Shown: positions 25,506-31,460 of the stretch, piece after piece
How positions within the stretch are numbered: the first letter of the stretch is position 1
Layout of the letters: the number at the start of each line of letters is the position of its first letter
From: Kiritimatiellia bacterium
Lineage (GTDB): Bacteria; Verrucomicrobiota; Kiritimatiellia; RFP12; UBA1067
Length of the DNA stretch: 64,000 bases
Reading direction: 5' to 3'
Assembly: GCA_050949565.1 (NCBI GenBank)
Contig: JBMNFY010000020.1
Coordinates: forward strand, 60,215-124,214
Translations under genes and position numbers: made by a program
Notes under the pieces: generated by a model
Databases searched by the model: none
Told to the model about the DNA's origin: nothing
What the model saw: the letters and a program-made list of their open reading frames with translations, nothing else

Positions 25506-27643
25506 TACCGCACGGCTTTGGACAGCAACAGAGACAGAGCGAGCATCGCGTGATGTTGGCCTGCGTGGCCGTTTTGTTGTCCGCGGTCATCCATGTGGTC
25601 TGCATGTATCTGTTCGCGGACTGGGCGTTGGGCAGCGTTGCGAGCGGTCTGCGCCAGAAATCACGTGAATGGTTCGATGGCGACCGCGTGCCGCCGATGC
25701 GCGTGGAGATGATGCATGCCGATCCAATGCGTATCGCTGAGAGAATAATGGGTGAGCGCGAAGCGCCGAGCCGCGGGCCGATTGAAGCCGGCGAGCGGGT
25801 GGACGAACTCAGCCAGAGCGCGACTCCCGTGCTCACTGTGCCGCCACCGATTCCGCGTGAAGCGTTGATGCCGGGCGTGCCCGTGTTGAAACAGGTGGTC
25901 CCCGAGCAGATCGACACCACACCGTGGATGCCGCGCCAAGAGATCGCGCAGATTTTCGACCGCACCGTACAGGATGATGTGGCTGCTTTGCCACGACGCG
26001 AAATTCCGATGATCGAGCGGGTGCCCAAAGCACCGGACATCGTACCGTCAATCGATCTGGCCGGTCGCCGTTTCGGCAGAGACCCCGAACCGCCTAAACT
26101 TGCAGAGGCGGCTGAAATATTCGATACGGATATCACTAAGGGAACCTTCAAACCACCGATTGCGGAAGTGCCCGAGACCGCGCCTAAAGTCAGCACTGAC
26201 ACAACCGAGGCACGTTTCGGAGTGCGGCCCGGTGAGAAGACGGGCGTGACCGCCGACGGCACCGTAGTCAAGGGCACAACCGCTGGAAAGAAGGGCACCG
26301 ACAGTGCGATCGCCGATGGAACGACAGCTACTGGGGCGGCGGCGGCCGATGGTGCGGCCACTGGCAAGAGAGCTACCGACGGCACGACCACTGACGGTGC
26401 GACCGCTGGCAAGAAGGCTGGCGATGATACGATCACTGGAAGCCCCGACGGTGAAAAGCTTACGCAGGCGCAGCAAGAGCGCGTCAGACAGCAGCTTGAA
26501 GAGGCGGCCCGGCAGACACCGGCCGGGCAAGAGGTCAGTGCGGAAGAGCTGAGAGCGCGCGAGGCCCAAGCGCAGATCGCGGCGTTGCGGGAGACGATCG
26601 ACTACGTGCCGATAGATGACCTGCTGGCTGTCGGTCTGGAGACCTTCCGCGATCCTGCCGAGCCGGGTCAGGTTTATTTCCGCATCGGAATTCAACCGCG
26701 TACCGATAAACAGGTGCCGGTCATTGCCAAAGACATTGTCTTCGTGCAGGATGTTTCGGCCTCAATGACCGAGGAGCGCATGGTCTTCTGTCGGCGCGGT
26801 ATGGCGGCGGCGCTCCGGACCCTTAATCCAGGTGATCGCTTCAATGTGGTCGCATTCCGCGACACATTCGATGCCTGCTTTAAAGAGTGGGCTGTCGCTT
26901 CAACCGAAAACCTTGTCAAGGCGTCGGCGTTTGTGGATGGTATGCGCGCCTTCGGTCAGACAGACCTCTTCGGTTCGCTGCGCTCGCTGATACGGCTACC
27001 GCGCGATCCTCGGCGTCCGATGATCGCGGTGGTTGTCACGGACGGCAGGCCGACCGCTGGTCTCACGGAGAGCGCCAAAATCATCGGTGAATTTTCCAAA
27101 ATCAACAGCGGTATGATCTCGGTCTATATGTTCGGTGTCCAGAGCAAGGCCAACGTCTATTTGCTTGATATGCTCACTTATTGCAATCGCGGTACGTCAA
27201 CCATCATGTACCAAGGTAACCGCTGGGATCTGCCGGCAGCGTTCCAGCCGGTCTATGATGGGCTGCGCTATCCCGTCATGGGGGATATCACGGTGGTTTT
27301 TGACTCAGCGTCGAAATGCGAGGTGTACCCCAAAAACACGCCCAACCTCTACAAGGGCCGCCAATTGGAACTGTGCGGCGTCTGTCCGGACACTACGGAG
27401 GAATTAATCTTTCAGGTGCGCGGTCTGGCATCGGACAAAGGTTATGATTCGATCTTCCGGCTTAGCATGTCGCGCCATGCTAAACTCGGATCAGCCGCCT
27501 TGAAGCAGCGCTGGGCGAACCAGAAGATGTATCACCTCGTGGCGGAATATTCGCGTGAGGCGCGCCAGCAAGTGATGGCCGAAATGTTGAAAGTCCACAC
27601 GCGTTACGGCGTGCCGATCCCCTATGAATCTGAATTGAAGTGA
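25502..27643 (+). CDS. Membrane-anchored VWA-domain protein with Pro-rich and low-complexity linker
   Basis: N-terminal TM (SAVIH); MIDAS DVSAS; VVTDG. Confidence 0.85.
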   Translation: MIPHGFGQQQRQSEHRVMLACVAVLLSAVIHVVCMYLFADWALGSVASGLRQKSREWFDGDRVPPMRVEMMHADPMRIAERIMGEREAPSRGPIEAGERVDELSQSATPVLTVPPPIPREALMPGVPVLKQVVPEQIDTTPWMPRQEIAQIFDRTVQDDVAALPRREIPMIERVPKAPDIVPSIDLAGRRFGRDPEPPKLAEAAEIFDTDITKGTFKPPIAEVPETAPKVSTDTTEARFGVRPGEKTGVTADGTVVKGTTAGKKGTDSAIADGTTATGAAAADGAATGKRATDGTTTDGATAGKKAGDDTITGSPDGEKLTQAQQERVRQQLEEAARQTPAGQEVSAEELRAREAQAQIAALRETIDYVPIDDLLAVGLETFRDPAEPGQVYFRIGIQPRTDKQVPVIAKDIVFVQDVSASMTEERMVFCRRGMAAALRTLNPGDRFNVVAFRDTFDACFKEWAVASTENLVKASAFVDGMRAFGQTDLFGSLRSLIRLPRDPRRPMIAVVVTDGRPTAGLTESAKIIGEFSKINSGMISVYMFGVQSKANVYLLDMLTYCNRGTSTIMYQGNRWDLPAAFQPVYDGLRYPVMGDITVVFDSASKCEVYPKNTPNLYKGRQLELCGVCPDTTEELIFQVRGLASDKGYDSIFRLSMSRHAKLGSAALKQRWANQKMYHLVAEYSREARQQVMAEMLKVHTRYGVPIPYESELK

Positions 27644-28080
27644 CCGCCATGATCTCTTACAAGCTCGTGATGCCTGAACACATGAACCAATACGGTGCGT
27701 TGTTCGGCGGCAATCTGCTGAAGTGGGTGGACGAGATAGCGTGGATGGCGGTCAGCCTTGATTACCCTGGGGCGCGTTTTGTCACGATCGGCATGGACCG
27801 TGTCGAGTTCAAGAAAAGTGTCTCCGGCGGGTCGATCCTGCGCTTTGAGATCGTTCGCCAGCGGGTTGGCCGTACTTCGGTCACATACGAAGTCCATGTT
27901 TCGCGACGCGAATTGCATCAGAGCGTGGAGGACGTGATCTTCAGTACCGACATCACGTTCGTGCGGGTCGACGAAAACGGCGAGAAGATACCGGTTTTTG
28001 CTGTGTGTGATGCGCACTGTCAGACCGAGACAACTCCCCCCAACAGAGGTACAGGATGTCAGGCCGAAACAGAGAGGTGA
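27640..28080 (+). CDS. Acyl-CoA thioesterase (hotdog fold)
   Basis: NQYGALFGGNLLKWVDE; VGRTS. Confidence 0.88.
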   Translation: MTAMISYKLVMPEHMNQYGALFGGNLLKWVDEIAWMAVSLDYPGARFVTIGMDRVEFKKSVSGGSILRFEIVRQRVGRTSVTYEVHVSRRELHQSVEDVIFSTDITFVRVDENGEKIPVFAVCDAHCQTETTPPNRGTGCQAETER

Positions 28081-29048
28081 TCCGCTGCGGCATCTGCCCG
28101 AAGGCATGCCGCATCCCGCCGGGATTCAGCGGCGAATGCCGGGTCCGGATGAATCTGGACGGGCGGCTGGTGGCGGTGACGTACGCGCGTCCATGCGCGG
28201 TGCATGTGGATCCAATGGAGAAAAAGCCGCTGTTTCATTTTTTTCCGGGTGAGATGATTTTGTCGCTCGGTTCGGCTGGGTGTAACCTGCACTGTAAGCA
28301 CTGCCAGAACGCGGATCTTTCGCAAGGCAATCCGGAGGATATCACGGCCTTTGATCTGCCGCCGGCGGCACTCCCCACGCTGGCGAAAAAACATGGCTGC
28401 GCCCATGTGGCATATACCTACAATGAACCGCTGATCAATTATGAGTATGTGCGCGACTGCTGCATCGCCGCGCGCGAGGCCGGGCTGCGCAATGTGCTGG
28501 TGACAGCCGGATACATCAATGCGAAACCGCTGGCCGCGTTGCTGCCTTATGTGGATGCGGCGAATGTCGATATCAAGGGGTTCAGCGAGGACTTTTACCG
28601 AGAGGTGTGCGGGGCCAGTTTGGCGCCGGTGCTGGCAACCGTCCAGCGGATGCTTGAGGCGCGTGTGCATGTGGAGATCACGAGTCTGGTGATCCCGACG
28701 CTTAACGATTCGGATGAGATGCTGGACCAGCTTTTTGGATGGGTGGCCGAGTACGCCGGCGCGGATATCCCATTGCATCTCTCGCGATTTTTTCCGGCGT
28801 TCCGCATGACGCATCTGCCGCCCACGCCGCTGGCGACGCTACTGCGGGCGCGGGAGCGCGCCAAAGCTGCGGGCCTCAAGCATGTGTATGTGGGCAATGC
28901 CGAGGTGCCGGACGGCGACGACACCTTCTGCGCGGGCTGTGGCGCACGCGTGGTGACGCGCCAGCGGTATGTAGTGACCGCCAACCGCATCAAGCCGGAC
29001 GGCGGCTGTATGGCGTGCGGTAGGCCGGTCTATGGAGTCTGGTCGTGA
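28056..29048 (+). CDS. amrS: AmmeMemoRadiSam system radical SAM enzyme
   Basis: N-terminal CxxCPxxC...C; DPMEKKPLFHF; CNLHCKHCQN; YTYNEP; HLSRFFP. Confidence 0.93.
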   Translation: MSGRNREVIRCGICPKACRIPPGFSGECRVRMNLDGRLVAVTYARPCAVHVDPMEKKPLFHFFPGEMILSLGSAGCNLHCKHCQNADLSQGNPEDITAFDLPPAALPTLAKKHGCAHVAYTYNEPLINYEYVRDCCIAAREAGLRNVLVTAGYINAKPLAALLPYVDAANVDIKGFSEDFYREVCGASLAPVLATVQRMLEARVHVEITSLVIPTLNDSDEMLDQLFGWVAEYAGADIPLHLSRFFPAFRMTHLPPTPLATLLRARERAKAAGLKHVYVGNAEVPDGDDTFCAGCGARVVTRQRYVVTANRIKPDGGCMACGRPVYGVWS

Positions 29049-29061
29049 TGCGCACGGCGCG

Positions 29062-29733
29062 TAATCGGTTAATGACAGGGATGTGCGAAGATCATGCGTT
29101 TCTGGTGAAAAGGAGAACAGAGAGTCGGGAGCAACGTGTCTTGCAAAAGGCTGTGGCACGGGCATCTTGCCCGTGTTCCATGATTTTATTTTTGACATGA
29201 TTGACACGATTGACATGCTTTGGAGGGCGAGTGTCCCCACGAGCCGCCGAGGCGCGGCAATGGAGGGCGAGTGTCCCCACGAGCCGCCGAGGCGCGGCAA
29301 TGGAGGGCGAGTGTCCCCACGAGCCGCCGGGACGGGCAATGGAGGGCGAGTGTCCCCACGAGCCGCCGGGACGGGCAATGGAGGGCGAGTGTCCCCACGA
29401 GCCGCCGGGACGGGCAATGGAGGGCGAGTGTCCCCACGAGCCGCCTTCCGCTGTGCGGAAGGATGGTTTCATAGGCGATTGCGGAGCGCCGGGAGGGGCA
29501 AGCGTCTGCTTGCCCGCGGACGAGCAGACGCTCGTCCCTCCCGCCCAGCGGCGGTAACGCCGCTGAACCGTGGAAAATCTCTGCGTCTTCGAGTCTCTGC
29601 GTTAAAAAAACGCTCAACTCTCAACGTTCAACTCTCAACTCTCAACGTTCTGCGGGCGTGGACGCCCGCGCTCCCGACTGCGCACGCACGGAACACGCAC
29701 TCGACTCGCATGGCTCCTGTCGCCAACCGATTA
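29062..29733. mobile_element. 672-bp non-autonomous element (MITE-like) filled with REP-like repeats
   Basis: TIRs taatcggttaatgacagg and cctgtcgccaaccgatta (15/18); flanked by direct repeat cgcacggcgcg at 29051-29061 and 29734-29744; no transposase. Confidence 0.8.
29221..29445 (+). repeat. Tandem array of six GGAG-type REP-like units (28-bp core tggagggcgagtgtccccacgagccgcc)
   Basis: Units start at 29221, 29261, 29301, 29340, 29379 and 29418; linkers gaggcgcggcaa x2 and gggacgggcaa x3; solo copy at ~13063-13088. Confidence 0.92.
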
Positions 29734-29865
29734 CGCACGGCGCGTTTTACGCGCCGCGGCTTCTTGGTGTCGCTGGCGGCGGCGATGCTGTGCCGCCAGC
29801 GGCGGATGCGCGTGTGCCGTCTGGATGACGCGCGTGTGCGGCAAATGGCCAAGTGGGCGGGTTGA
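29710..29865 (+). CDS. Small twin-arginine-motif peptide; native start at 29048 separated by the MITE
   Basis: MAPVANRL-RTARFTRRGFLVSLAAAMLC...KWAG*; the reconstructed empty site gives a 44-aa ORF coupled to amrS via TGATG. Confidence 0.6.
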   Translation: MAPVANRLRTARFTRRGFLVSLAAAMLCRQRRMRVCRLDDARVRQMAKWAG

Positions 29866-29882
29866 GCGCGGGAGGGAATGAT

Positions 29883-31460
29883 ATGCGCAGGATACTGCCG
29901 GGAGTGGTGTCGATTGTATGTGCGGTCGCGATGGTGGGCTGTTCGGGCGAGCGGCCACGGTCGCCAAATCAGGAGGATGTGCCAATGAAAAAAGTAATGG
30001 TGTCGCCGTTGGCGGGCCGCTGGTTTCAGGATAGCGAACGCGCATTGCGTGATGAGATCGCGGAGTTGTGCAAAGGCATCACAGTCGTGCGCAAAAAAAA
30101 TGTGTGCGCGGCGGTGGTGCCGCATGCGGGTTACCGCTTTTCAGGACGTGTGGCGGCAGGAGTTTTTCTGCGCATTGACCCCAAACCGATCAACCGCATT
30201 GTGGTGATGGGGCCCAGCCACTACGTGGGGATGCACAACCGGGTCAGTATTCCGGATGCGACGCATTTCCGCACACCGCTCGGTGAGTTGCCGGTAGACA
30301 CGGCGTTCGTGAAGCGCGCGCGGGCATTGCCCTTCGTCACACAGGAGCCGCAGGCACATACACAAGAGCACAGCGATCAGATCCAGTTGCCGCTTATTCA
30401 GGCGTGCTTGGCCACCAACATCCCGGTCGTGTGCGTGGTGTGCGGGAGGTTCAATCCAGAGAATCTCCTGAAGGCGGCCGCCGCGTTCAGAGAATTACTG
30501 GATGACCGTACGCTTGTGGTCGCGAGTTCGGATTTCACGCATTACGGCGCGAACTACAGGTATGTGCCGTTCACCAACGATGTGCAGCGCAAGATTGAGA
30601 CGCTGGACATGGGAATCTTCGACCTGTTCGCGCGCAAGGATCTTGATGGTTTTCTGAAACGGCTGGATGAGACGGGTGCCACGGTTTGCGGGCGCGATCC
30701 GCTGGCGTTCCTGTTGGCGATGATGCCGGAAAACGCCAAGGTCGAACGCACGGCTTATGAAACATCGGGACGGCTTACGCATGATACGCGGAATTCGGTG
30801 AGTTATCTCGGGGCGCTGGTGACCGGGACGTGGGACACGCCTGCAAAAAAGGTTCAGCCAACCGTAGCGAGCACGGAAAAAATCCCCGACGAAGATTGCG
30901 ATTGGCTGTTGGCTTGGGCGCGTGAGACGCTTGAAGAGGCCTTCAAGAGCGGTGAGCGACGCACGGCCTTGCGCGAGCCTGCGGCCTTGACGGATGGGCT
31001 GCGCGCGATGCGGGGCGGGTTCGTGACGCTGAACAAGCGGGGCGAGTTGCGCGGTTGTATCGGCGAGATCGTGCCGCGTCGCGAGATCTGGAAGGTCGTG
31101 CGCGAGCAGGCGCTCAATGCGGCGTTTCATGATCCGCGTTTTCCGTCGCTTACCGAAAAGGAACTCAATGAGATTGATATTGAGATCTCGATGCTGACTC
31201 CGCCGCGTCCGGTGGCATCGTGGCGTGACATTGTGATCGGCAAGCATGGGATGGTGTTGACCAAGGGCGGGCGTAGCGCGGTGTTCCTGCCGCAGGTTGC
31301 GCCGGAGCAGGGGTGGGGCCTCGAAGAGACGCTTACGCATCTCGCCATGAAGGCCGGACTTTCCCCGGAAGCATGGCGCGAAGGTGCGGAGTTCTTGGTG
31401 TTCGAAGCGCAGGTGATTCAAGAGAAGGCCGGGAAGGGGAACAAGGAGGATGGACGGTGA
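29883..31460 (+). CDS. amrB: AmmeMemoRadiSam protein B (MEMO1) - protein A (AMMECR1) fusion with lipoprotein signal
   Basis: PHAGYRFSG, GPSH, EHS, SSDFTHYG, TVCG; then GGFVTL...LRGCIG, DPRF, FLPQVA; N-terminal AMVGC lipobox; RBS ggaggg. Confidence 0.92.
   Translation: MRRILPGVVSIVCAVAMVGCSGERPRSPNQEDVPMKKVMVSPLAGRWFQDSERALRDEIAELCKGITVVRKKNVCAAVVPHAGYRFSGRVAAGVFLRIDPKPINRIVVMGPSHYVGMHNRVSIPDATHFRTPLGELPVDTAFVKRARALPFVTQEPQAHTQEHSDQIQLPLIQACLATNIPVVCVVCGRFNPENLLKAAAAFRELLDDRTLVVASSDFTHYGANYRYVPFTNDVQRKIETLDMGIFDLFARKDLDGFLKRLDETGATVCGRDPLAFLLAMMPENAKVERTAYETSGRLTHDTRNSVSYLGALVTGTWDTPAKKVQPTVASTEKIPDEDCDWLLAWARETLEEAFKSGERRTALREPAALTDGLRAMRGGFVTLNKRGELRGCIGEIVPRREIWKVVREQALNAAFHDPRFPSLTEKELNEIDIEISMLTPPRPVASWRDIVIGKHGMVLTKGGRSAVFLPQVAPEQGWGLEETLTHLAMKAGLSPEAWREGAEFLVFEAQVIQEKAGKGNKEDGR

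Follow-up and report, generated by a model that had tools for sequence, protein, structure and literature searches.

MftA (of mycofactocin), PqqA and QhpC are peptide precursors encoded beside radical S-adenosylmethionine (SAM) enzymes, and the TIGR02811 family ('formate dehydrogenase region TAT target') consists of small stand-alone proteins with a twin-arginine translocation (Tat) signal encoded by a redox enzyme. Hitchhiking of a signal-less iron-sulfur partner through the Tat system is an established mechanism, and the hitchhikers treated in PMC10924467 (the large subunit of NiFe hydrogenase with HybO/HyaA, and formate dehydrogenase subunits) combine a folded, cofactor-loaded, signal-less cargo with a partner carrying the twin-arginine (RR) motif, the two being encoded by adjacent, co-expressed genes. 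Here we describe a small open reading frame (ORF) that resembles each of these arrangements in part. It lies between amrS and a fused amrB-amrA gene, the components of the AmmeMemoRadiSam system, in a stretch of 64,000 nucleotides (hereafter, the window) from a Kiritimatiellia bacterium (assembly GCA_050949565.1, contig JBMNFY010000020.1, positions 60,215 to 124,214), where it is interrupted by a repeat element. Comparison with relatives indicates that the interrupted ORF is a genuine conserved gene linked to amrS, and we favor, at a probability of roughly 55%, the reading that its product is a detached Tat-targeting module carrying or anchoring the radical SAM enzyme AmrS.

The locus shares with the hitchhiking pairs a signal-less cargo with a cluster motif (CX3CX2C in AmrS, whose cysteines C76, C80 and C83 are invariant in 25 sequences) and an adjacent gene for an RR partner, the binding of the two being predicted by a docking model. 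Unlike in those pairs, the partner is not an enzyme subunit; as read from the sequence and the model, it would be a signal plus docking tail of 45-60 residues, and its cargo would be a radical SAM enzyme. AmrS homologues that carry a Tat signal on their own N-terminus belong to the same enzyme family and likewise combine an RRxF(L/I) signal with exported AmrB(A) partners, whereas here the signal, along with the segment (K/R)EAxx(Y/W)xKL, stands in a separate gene after the enzyme gene, split off and permuted in order, and in Kiritimatiellae the tail has diverged to LDxxxV(R/G)xMAxWAG directly before the stop. As with MftA, PqqA and QhpC, a small ORF with a conserved C-terminal motif is found next to a radical SAM gene; unlike in those systems, AmrS has neither a peptide-recognition nor a SPASM/twitch domain of the kind expected for ribosomally synthesized and post-translationally modified peptides, and the peptide has a Tat signal, is absent from most AmrS systems and tracks localization signals. 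Resemblance to TIGR02811 (weak matches in 3 of 17 orthologous peptides, best E 0.0086) is confined to the signal, and both the genomic context and the C-terminal tail differ. The features of the locus are as follows.

28056-29048, plus strand: amrS, AmmeMemoRadiSam radical SAM enzyme, 330 aa (TIGR04337, 368 bits, cut-off 220)
29045-29061, plus strand: 5' stump of the small ORF, with start GTG 29045 or ATG 29048 and the first codons up to the insertion point
29051-29061: left copy of the target-site duplication, 11 bp, CGCACGGCGCG (direct-repeat detection)
29062-29733: non-autonomous repeat of 672 bp resembling a miniature inverted-repeat transposable element (MITE), recognized by terminal inverted repeats, copies in the genome and an empty site in relatives
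29155-29195, plus strand (the operon strand): terminator-like hairpin (29155-29177) and T-rich tail within the repeat element, a consensus match only
29221-29445: 39-bp tandem array, 5.7 copies, within the repeat element
29710-29865, plus strand: possible rescue ORF, 51 aa, with an ATG from the element's right end
29734-29744: right copy of the target-site duplication, CGCACGGCGCG
29745-29865, plus strand: 3' body of the small ORF, comprising TRRGFL, a short hydrophobic stretch, a basic stretch, the tail LDDARVRQMAKWAG and the stop
29883-31460, plus strand: amrB-amrA fusion, 525 aa, lipoprotein-type signal (TIGR04336 and TIGR04335)

Adjacent matches to TIGR04337, TIGR04336 and TIGR04335, all above their cut-offs and the latter two fused in one protein (194.5 bits against a cut-off of 26, and 165 bits against 99), place the locus in the AmmeMemoRadiSam system. 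AmrS residues 7-329 align with positions 10-333 of the 349 in TIGR04337, so that the first nine model positions are missing; the protein starts just eight residues ahead of VIRCGICP and has no N-terminal signal, in agreement with a preliminary description of the window. AmrB-A opens with a signal (residues 1-20, judged by eye) that ends in the lipobox MVGC, the cysteine codon being 29940-29942. The preliminary description had also reported that deleting 29062-29744 restores a small ORF coupled to the amrS stop, and re-reading of the sequence returned the same coordinates for element, duplication and deletion: excision of these 683 bp restores the frame to the TGA at 29863-29865, 17 nt before the amrB-A ATG at 29883, and the product carries TRRGFL, a motif of the (S/T)-R-R-x-F-L type, with a short hydrophobic stretch behind it, as described. 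The length of 44 aa is the part that needs amending. The amrS stop is the TGA at 29046-29048, followed by the ATG at 29048; an in-frame GTG at 29045 makes a GTGA overlap with that stop that is typical of the peptide family, and because the relatives start there (on the xTG of ATGA or GTGA in 16 of 17, and 17 nt further on in L025) we prefer this codon, which means that the peptide is probably 45 aa.

The evidence that the ORF is a gene comes from empty sites. AmrS was searched in the genomes of 40 relatives, and the spacer 3' of amrS was read in the 29 loci returned; the small ORF is intact in 17 of them, at AmrS identities from 99% down to 60%. R9, R10, V37, W43 and G45 are invariant among the 17 aligned peptides, and the phenylalanine of the Tat motif is at least 90% conserved, and the codons beneath vary: all four glycine codons are in use for the terminal residue, nucleotide diversity in the tail is 0.46 at third positions versus 0.25 and 0.24 at the other two, and for the last 14 codons the ratio of nonsynonymous to synonymous change (pN/pS) comes to 0.36 in the reading frame, compared with 1.37 and 1.55 when the frame is shifted. 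When 1.84 billion representative proteins were searched with a profile, 23 matched at E <= 0.001; each of these is a protein of 45-64 aa standing on its own rather than a piece of something larger, labeled either 'hypothetical protein' or 'twin-arginine translocation signal domain-containing protein [Kiritimatiellae]'. Searching with a wider alignment added 86 mini-proteins ('hypothetical' where named), most of which represent a very uniform 60-aa Planctomycetota form ending in ...KYPGxLKPLxDISKQGKWSG, and no family in Pfam or NCBIfam covers the peptides beyond weak matches to generic Tat-signal models. At the level of the order (201 genomes), full-length profile matches were found in 12 genomes, every one beside amrS, with the many weaker matches being signals of large proteins; the same profile matches the window at 29740-29862 (G000:C20:89954-90076) with E 2.3e-17. 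Because purifying selection is specific to the frame, invariant residues go with synonymous variation, and conservation extends across phyla, these comparisons identify the interrupted ORF as a genuine conserved gene linked to amrS.

What the gene does is suggested by where it is found. We scanned species genomes with the AmrS alignment, obtained 80 named loci spread over many phyla, and sorted these with a script and by eye. An RR (or KR/RK) signal on the N-terminus of AmrS occurs in 27 (Desulfobacterota, Bacteroidales, Acidobacteriota and others), and AmrB(A) has a secretion signal in all three cases where it could be read within the locus, as well as in each of 10 more genomes searched for it. 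A small RR ORF directly after amrS occurs in 14 (Pirellulales, Phycisphaerae, Lentisphaerae, Syntrophales, Elusimicrobia, Omnitrophota and Nitrospiraceae), overlapping the amrS stop in nine of these; here AmrB(A) has a signal in 10 of the 10 that could be read. Five loci have a non-RR hydrophobic AmrS N-terminus (AmrB(A) signal in one of two, present in L120 and absent from L092), and the remaining 34, one of them at a contig edge, show none of these features. Of 12 AmrB(A) proteins examined in this last group, nine are clearly without a signal and three, from Bacteroidales, are ambiguous owing to alternative start codons. AmrB(A) is thus fitted with a secretion signal in 23 of 23 readable loci with a fused or separate Tat signal, and the fused signal and the separate peptide were never found together, neither in the 27 fused loci nor in the 14 plus 17 peptide loci. 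Judging by AxA-like sites (SANA|F and SHA|W, for example), many of the fused signals could be cleaved. By this pattern, an exported AmrB(A) would always go with a Tat signal on or beside AmrS, and the predicted location of the system switches as a unit.

The scan also turned up variants of both enzymes. In L092, L120, L137, L138 and L143 (Chlamydiae, Auribacterota, Elusimicrobia and others) the non-RR hydrophobic segment, an anchor or Sec-like, precedes the canonical N-terminal motif of AmrS. A shorter AmrS type (L086, L117, L133 and L136), in Bacteroidales, Prevotella/Segatella and one gammaproteobacterial metagenome-assembled genome, has a match ending near residue 281 and a C-terminus ...YLGN(V/I), and lacks the CxxC...CxxC ribbon. 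Four Desulfobacterota-type genomes (G212, G216, G217 and G219; loci L155, L157, L167 and L170) have one in-frame TGA within the AmrB-A match. Selenocysteine at the cysteine of the AMMECR1 motif RGCIG was ruled out as its meaning, the codon there being TGT or TGC, and the TGA probably serves as a stop codon that divides amrB from amrA, two genes sharing one frame there.

Within the order of the window genome the same correspondence holds. Wherever the peptide is encoded, AmrB-A opens with a hydrophobic stretch that closes in a lipobox-like xxGC (MVGC, AAGC or LLGC); in the peptide-less G017, G025, G026, G035, G036 and G037 it begins right at the Memo domain without any extension, and AmrS has no signal of its own in these loci. 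In G024, amrS and the peptide gene are kept together and still overlap, and amrB-A, its signal retained, is on another contig; because the pair is retained although amrB-A has moved away, the peptide goes with amrS. The next gene after this pair (L048:905-1375, minus strand) encodes a 156-aa protein with a lipoprotein-type signal (...LFMAGCETPQ...).

A further indication lies in how the separate peptides end. The canonical N-terminus of AmrS reads (K/R)EAxx(Y/W)xKL, a short turn and VxCxxCP, and in Tat-fused homologues the order is signal, linker, ...WKWSxEGxxYxKL, turn and VxC. None of the AmrS proteins from the 14 separate-peptide loci has the N-terminal motif (K/R)EAxx(Y/W)xKL; instead, it closes the peptides of Omnitrophota, Nitrospiraceae and Elusimicrobia (...KEARHYEKLAG, ...KEAMFWRKVD and ...REALFYHSDDGLAG, each followed by the stop), and when 1842 small ORFs were compared with a hidden Markov model (HMM) of the canonical motif, these three came first, second and fourth (E 7.6e-4, 0.018 and 0.089). 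This looks like a gene fission at the turn that left the enzyme body in one gene and placed the signal, together with the first structural segment, in another. For the tails of Kiritimatiellae and others of the Planctomycetes-Verrucomicrobia-Chlamydiae (PVC) group (...KWSG, ...MAKWAG) the link is positional only, K-(L/W)-(A/S)-G comparing with ...KKLAGG-VVC in fused proteins. Ranks 3 and 5 of the HMM comparison went to null ORFs that proved also to belong to AmrS loci, as small ORFs immediately 5' of amrS, in L145 (2298-2510, plus strand) and L084 (2226-2489, plus strand). Each joins a hydrophobic, anchor-like segment to a C-terminal canonical motif (...REAKYYRVIEE and ...HEAEYWEVVP before the stop), and that of L145 overlaps the amrS start with its stop (ATGA); both loci also have a downstream Tat mini-ORF, and the upstream ORF may represent either another N-terminal module that can be detached or an N-terminus put out of frame.

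Docking of the peptide on AmrS was modeled with the orthologues of both proteins from G002, each with its own alignment. The complex scored 0.85, against 0.00 for the best of three controls; solved complexes attain the score mark in 116 of 157 cases and mismatched pairs in 2 of 215, counts that are only approximate because own alignments were used. Runs of the model share at least 77% of contacts, with a predicted local distance difference test (pLDDT) of the partner of at least 58. Only peptide residues 25-45 contact AmrS, those of V37, M40, A41 and W43 being the best defined, and the signal half is left free. On the enzyme, the modeled surface comprises the strand 47-53 (CAVHVDP), residues 56-58, 69-74, 96-101 and 109-113, and the barrel mouth (84-85, 121-122, 149 and 170); most of these residues are conserved across all AmrS, and T42, R45, H50, L69, P93 and E94 are tighter in the peptide-bearing clade. 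As no AmrS structure has been solved (the nearest is pyruvate formate-lyase (PFL) activase, aligned over residues 74-227), the docking score does not derive from a solved look-alike complex.

We propose that the gene encodes a protein of about 45 residues, whose N-terminal part is a Tat signal and whose C-terminal 20 or so residues would dock on AmrS. The peptide would be translated in step with the enzyme, since its start overlaps the amrS stop; its tail would bind folded, iron-sulfur-loaded AmrS in the cytoplasm, and the peptide would then serve as an export tag in trans, presenting the RR signal to the translocase, so that AmrS would hitchhike through the Tat translocase or be anchored at it. 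AmrS would thus join AmrB-A, which in the same genomes appears to be exported by the Sec (general secretion)/lipoprotein route, and the peptide would be the split-gene counterpart of the Tat signal fused on about a third of sampled AmrS homologues. Docking is predicted by the model, and we infer export and activity outside the cytoplasm from the signals. The window genome encodes tatC (144.7 bits against a cut-off of 132.7), and among 30 peptides of the wide alignment RR or RK is present in all 30 and a C-terminal glycine in 27, which comes close to the RRxFL...(W/L)AG motif anticipated in the preliminary description. The tests proposed there came out in favor of an overlooked fourth component: comparable ORFs are present in 17 of 29 loci of relatives and 14 of 80 loci from other phyla, empty sites show coding-type conservation, and no locus combines the ORF with a Tat-bearing AmrS. 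Between the two roles that it had offered, a substrate of AmrS or a detached Tat carrier, the evidence favors the carrier, with the substrate less likely.

Several observations weigh against a targeting role. The chief objection is chemical: no radical SAM enzyme is known to act outside the cytoplasm, and neither SAM nor a low-potential reductant is known there; the objection holds equally for the 27 AmrS proteins with fused signals. The signals, called here by a home-made rule and by eye, are weak by the standards of the generic Tat models: PF10518 picks up five of the 17 peptides (best E 0.0032), TIGR01409 picks up four (best E 0.0023), L013, the closest intact orthologue, matches neither, and all 14 peptides from other phyla fall under the TIGR01409 cut-off of 16.7 bits. 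Of the 24 signals fused to AmrS that were compared, only 10 are picked up by the curated profiles at E <= 0.1. The hydrophobic stretch of the peptides has only 11-13 uncharged residues before basic ones follow, and no AxA cleavage site was evident in the peptides by eye. Three Bacteroidales loci (L090, L132 and L133) may, judged by eye, have an AmrB(A) signal without Tat on AmrS, and the co-occurrence within Kiritimatiellales concerns one clade and hence one event. None of the profile comparisons ties the Kiritimatiellae tail to the canonical AmrS N-terminus: hhalign of separate peptides against fused N-termini aligns the signal alone (19 columns, probability 90%), the HMM of the canonical motif does not match the Kiritimatiellae tails (best such peptide E 2.5), and TIGR04337 hits no peptide. 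Finally, the modeled interface takes in two residues by the cluster loop (Q84 and N85) and two more (T121 and Y122) whose counterpart in PFL activase is the SAM-binding GGE motif, and the model was built without SAM or cluster, such that the tail in it may occupy a site left vacant by a cofactor or substrate, an arrangement also in keeping with a substrate role.

It is because the last residues of the tail may occupy such a site that the peptide may alternatively be a substrate of AmrS or a product carrier, its tail modified in the cytoplasm (e.g., at or near the terminal glycine) and delivered by Tat to the periplasmic AmrB-A lipoprotein, which would process or use the modified peptide. AmrS is closest to PFL activase, which acts on a protein glycine, glycine is the last residue of 27 peptides out of 30, peptide-derived cofactors are usually encoded in this way, by a small ORF that sits next to a radical SAM gene and whose C-terminal motif is conserved, and the model places peptide residues 41-45 near AmrS 84-85, 121-122, 149 and 170 at the barrel mouth, albeit in the absence of SAM and cluster. 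However, 66 of the 80 sampled AmrS loci have no peptide, so that a substrate of this kind would leave the family as a whole unexplained. The peptide never accompanies a fused Tat signal and always accompanies an exported AmrB(A), a pattern that a targeting role predicts and a substrate role does not; its tail in three phyla is the motif with which the canonical enzyme itself begins; and AmrS yielded no peptide-recognition domain, the matches to SPASM families being far below their cut-offs (E 1e-4 to 7e-4, about 20 bits versus 400-650). We regard a substrate as unlikely, though as the most probable of the alternatives.

In a second alternative, Tat inserts the peptide as a small subunit of the membrane or periplasm, where it serves AmrB-A or anchors the complex, and AmrS stays at the cytoplasmic face. 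The position of the gene directly upstream of amrB-A, 17 nt from its start, would suit such a subunit, as would the lack of an evident signal-peptidase site, by which the signal may stay as an anchor, and anchor-like hydrophobic segments do occur in AmrS systems, both on the five homologues with non-RR N-termini (L092, L120, L137, L138 and L143) and in the upstream small ORFs of L145 and L084, where one is joined to the canonical motif. Against this, the peptide of G024 stays with amrS and not with amrB-A, the docking model, in which AmrS was the only partner paired with it, is with AmrS, and many of the signals fused to AmrS (SANA|F, SHA|W) look cleavable, which makes such a subunit rather improbable. 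That the ORF is no gene at all, i.e., an open frame in a GC-rich spacer (where the other two frames are also largely open) or a decayed remnant of a former amrB signal, short and without a family model as it is, is very hard to reconcile with frame-specific purifying selection, invariant residues amid synonymous variation, conservation down to 60% AmrS identity and in other phyla, and 23 plus 86 database proteins of the same size.

In the window, the gene has been cut in two by the repeat element. The inverted ends TAATCGGTT ... AACCGATTA delimit it at 29062-29733, and its terminal inverted repeats are imperfect (TAATCGGTTAATGACAGG / CCTGTCGCCAACCGATTA). The element belongs to a family with 123 BLAST matches in its own genome, 129 terminal-repeat ends and 18 paired elements of 183-1424 bp, whose terminal repeat has the consensus TAATCGGTTAGTGACAGGGG; it thus has the hallmarks of a MITE, namely terminal inverted repeats, a target duplication, many copies and no transposase, for which 672 bp are too short. 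Exact target duplication was found in only 1 of the 18 paired elements, with a 10/11 match in one more (C17:1018819) and two partial cases by eye. A target duplication of merely 'TA' was rejected, as the restored site would then be frameshifted and keep a duplication of 13 bp. Other copies of the element (e.g., G000 C17:1018819-1019073 and C17:1149820-1150312) vary in the number of the internal 39-bp repeats, and one frame is open through the entire copy in the window (29083-29865, 260 aa). The insertion sits 14-17 nt into the small ORF, after the fifth codon from GTG 29045, and both of its junctions are present in contigs from two DNA runs of different studies (X1 and X6; 0-2 differences). 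The bacterium is found in abundance in anaerobic digesters. Because the duplication is perfect and the site is empty, with an intact ORF, in a relative whose AmrS is 99% identical (G004, locus L012), sequence comparison dates the insertion in this genome as recent.

By parting the start of the small ORF from its body, the insertion breaks the coupling to amrS. It also brings in the hairpin, with a stem of 10 pairs, six of them GC; two such sites occur in the region versus 0.8 expected from shuffles. The in-frame ATG at 29710, which the preliminary description had rightly pointed out as opening a 51-aa version, retains the entire RR motif and tail, and this version starting within the element could still be made; no Shine-Dalgarno-like sequence was seen upstream of that ATG. 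Contigs from RNA libraries span the right end of the element, the ORF body and the amrB-A start (X7, 29526-29903, 0 differences; X16, 29593-29992, one difference), a weak hint of transcription across the rescue ORF, since DNA carry-over is possible in RNA libraries. No joint skipping 29062-29744 was found among the contig joints listed, contigs being prone to drop rare variants. Position 29049 in RNA-library run X7 is C and not T (depth 22.7 of 22.7), which gives the GTGACG start context of the relatives and marks a strain difference at the start codon.

Upstream, a 146-aa ORF resembling hotdog-fold thioesterases (27640-28080; weak matches to YciA and TIGR00369) overlaps the amrS start by 25 nt as well as the end of a 713-aa gene further upstream, and may share the operon. 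Between 28900 and 30000, no sigma-70-like promoter was found, and Rfam returned nothing beyond four matches at E 0.44-0.91, far under gathering scores.

Our literature search found no paper linking AmrS to a Tat signal or a small peptide, with the main comparative study of Memo-AMMECR1-radical SAM contexts, which may mention exported versions, lying outside its reach; none of the papers found joins AMMECR1, radical SAM and twin-arginine, and mentions of AmmeMemoRadiSam are incidental by their titles and abstracts. The trio of AMMECR1, Memo and radical SAM proteins, for which no reaction is known, is conserved in organisms as distant as archaea and humans (in the latter as AMMECR1 and MEMO1), and the present analysis adds to its bacterial form, in the PVC group and other phyla, a fourth, previously unrecognized gene. 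For Tat biology, the peptide may represent a stand-alone signal adaptor that tags another protein. If AmrS does leave the cytoplasm, radical SAM chemistry would take place where none is known; if the peptide is instead the substrate, the chemistry of the whole system would be exposed on a 45-residue molecule well suited to mass spectrometry. Whichever reading holds, the pair of peptide and AmrS offers a small, tractable handle on an enzyme family that has resisted study.

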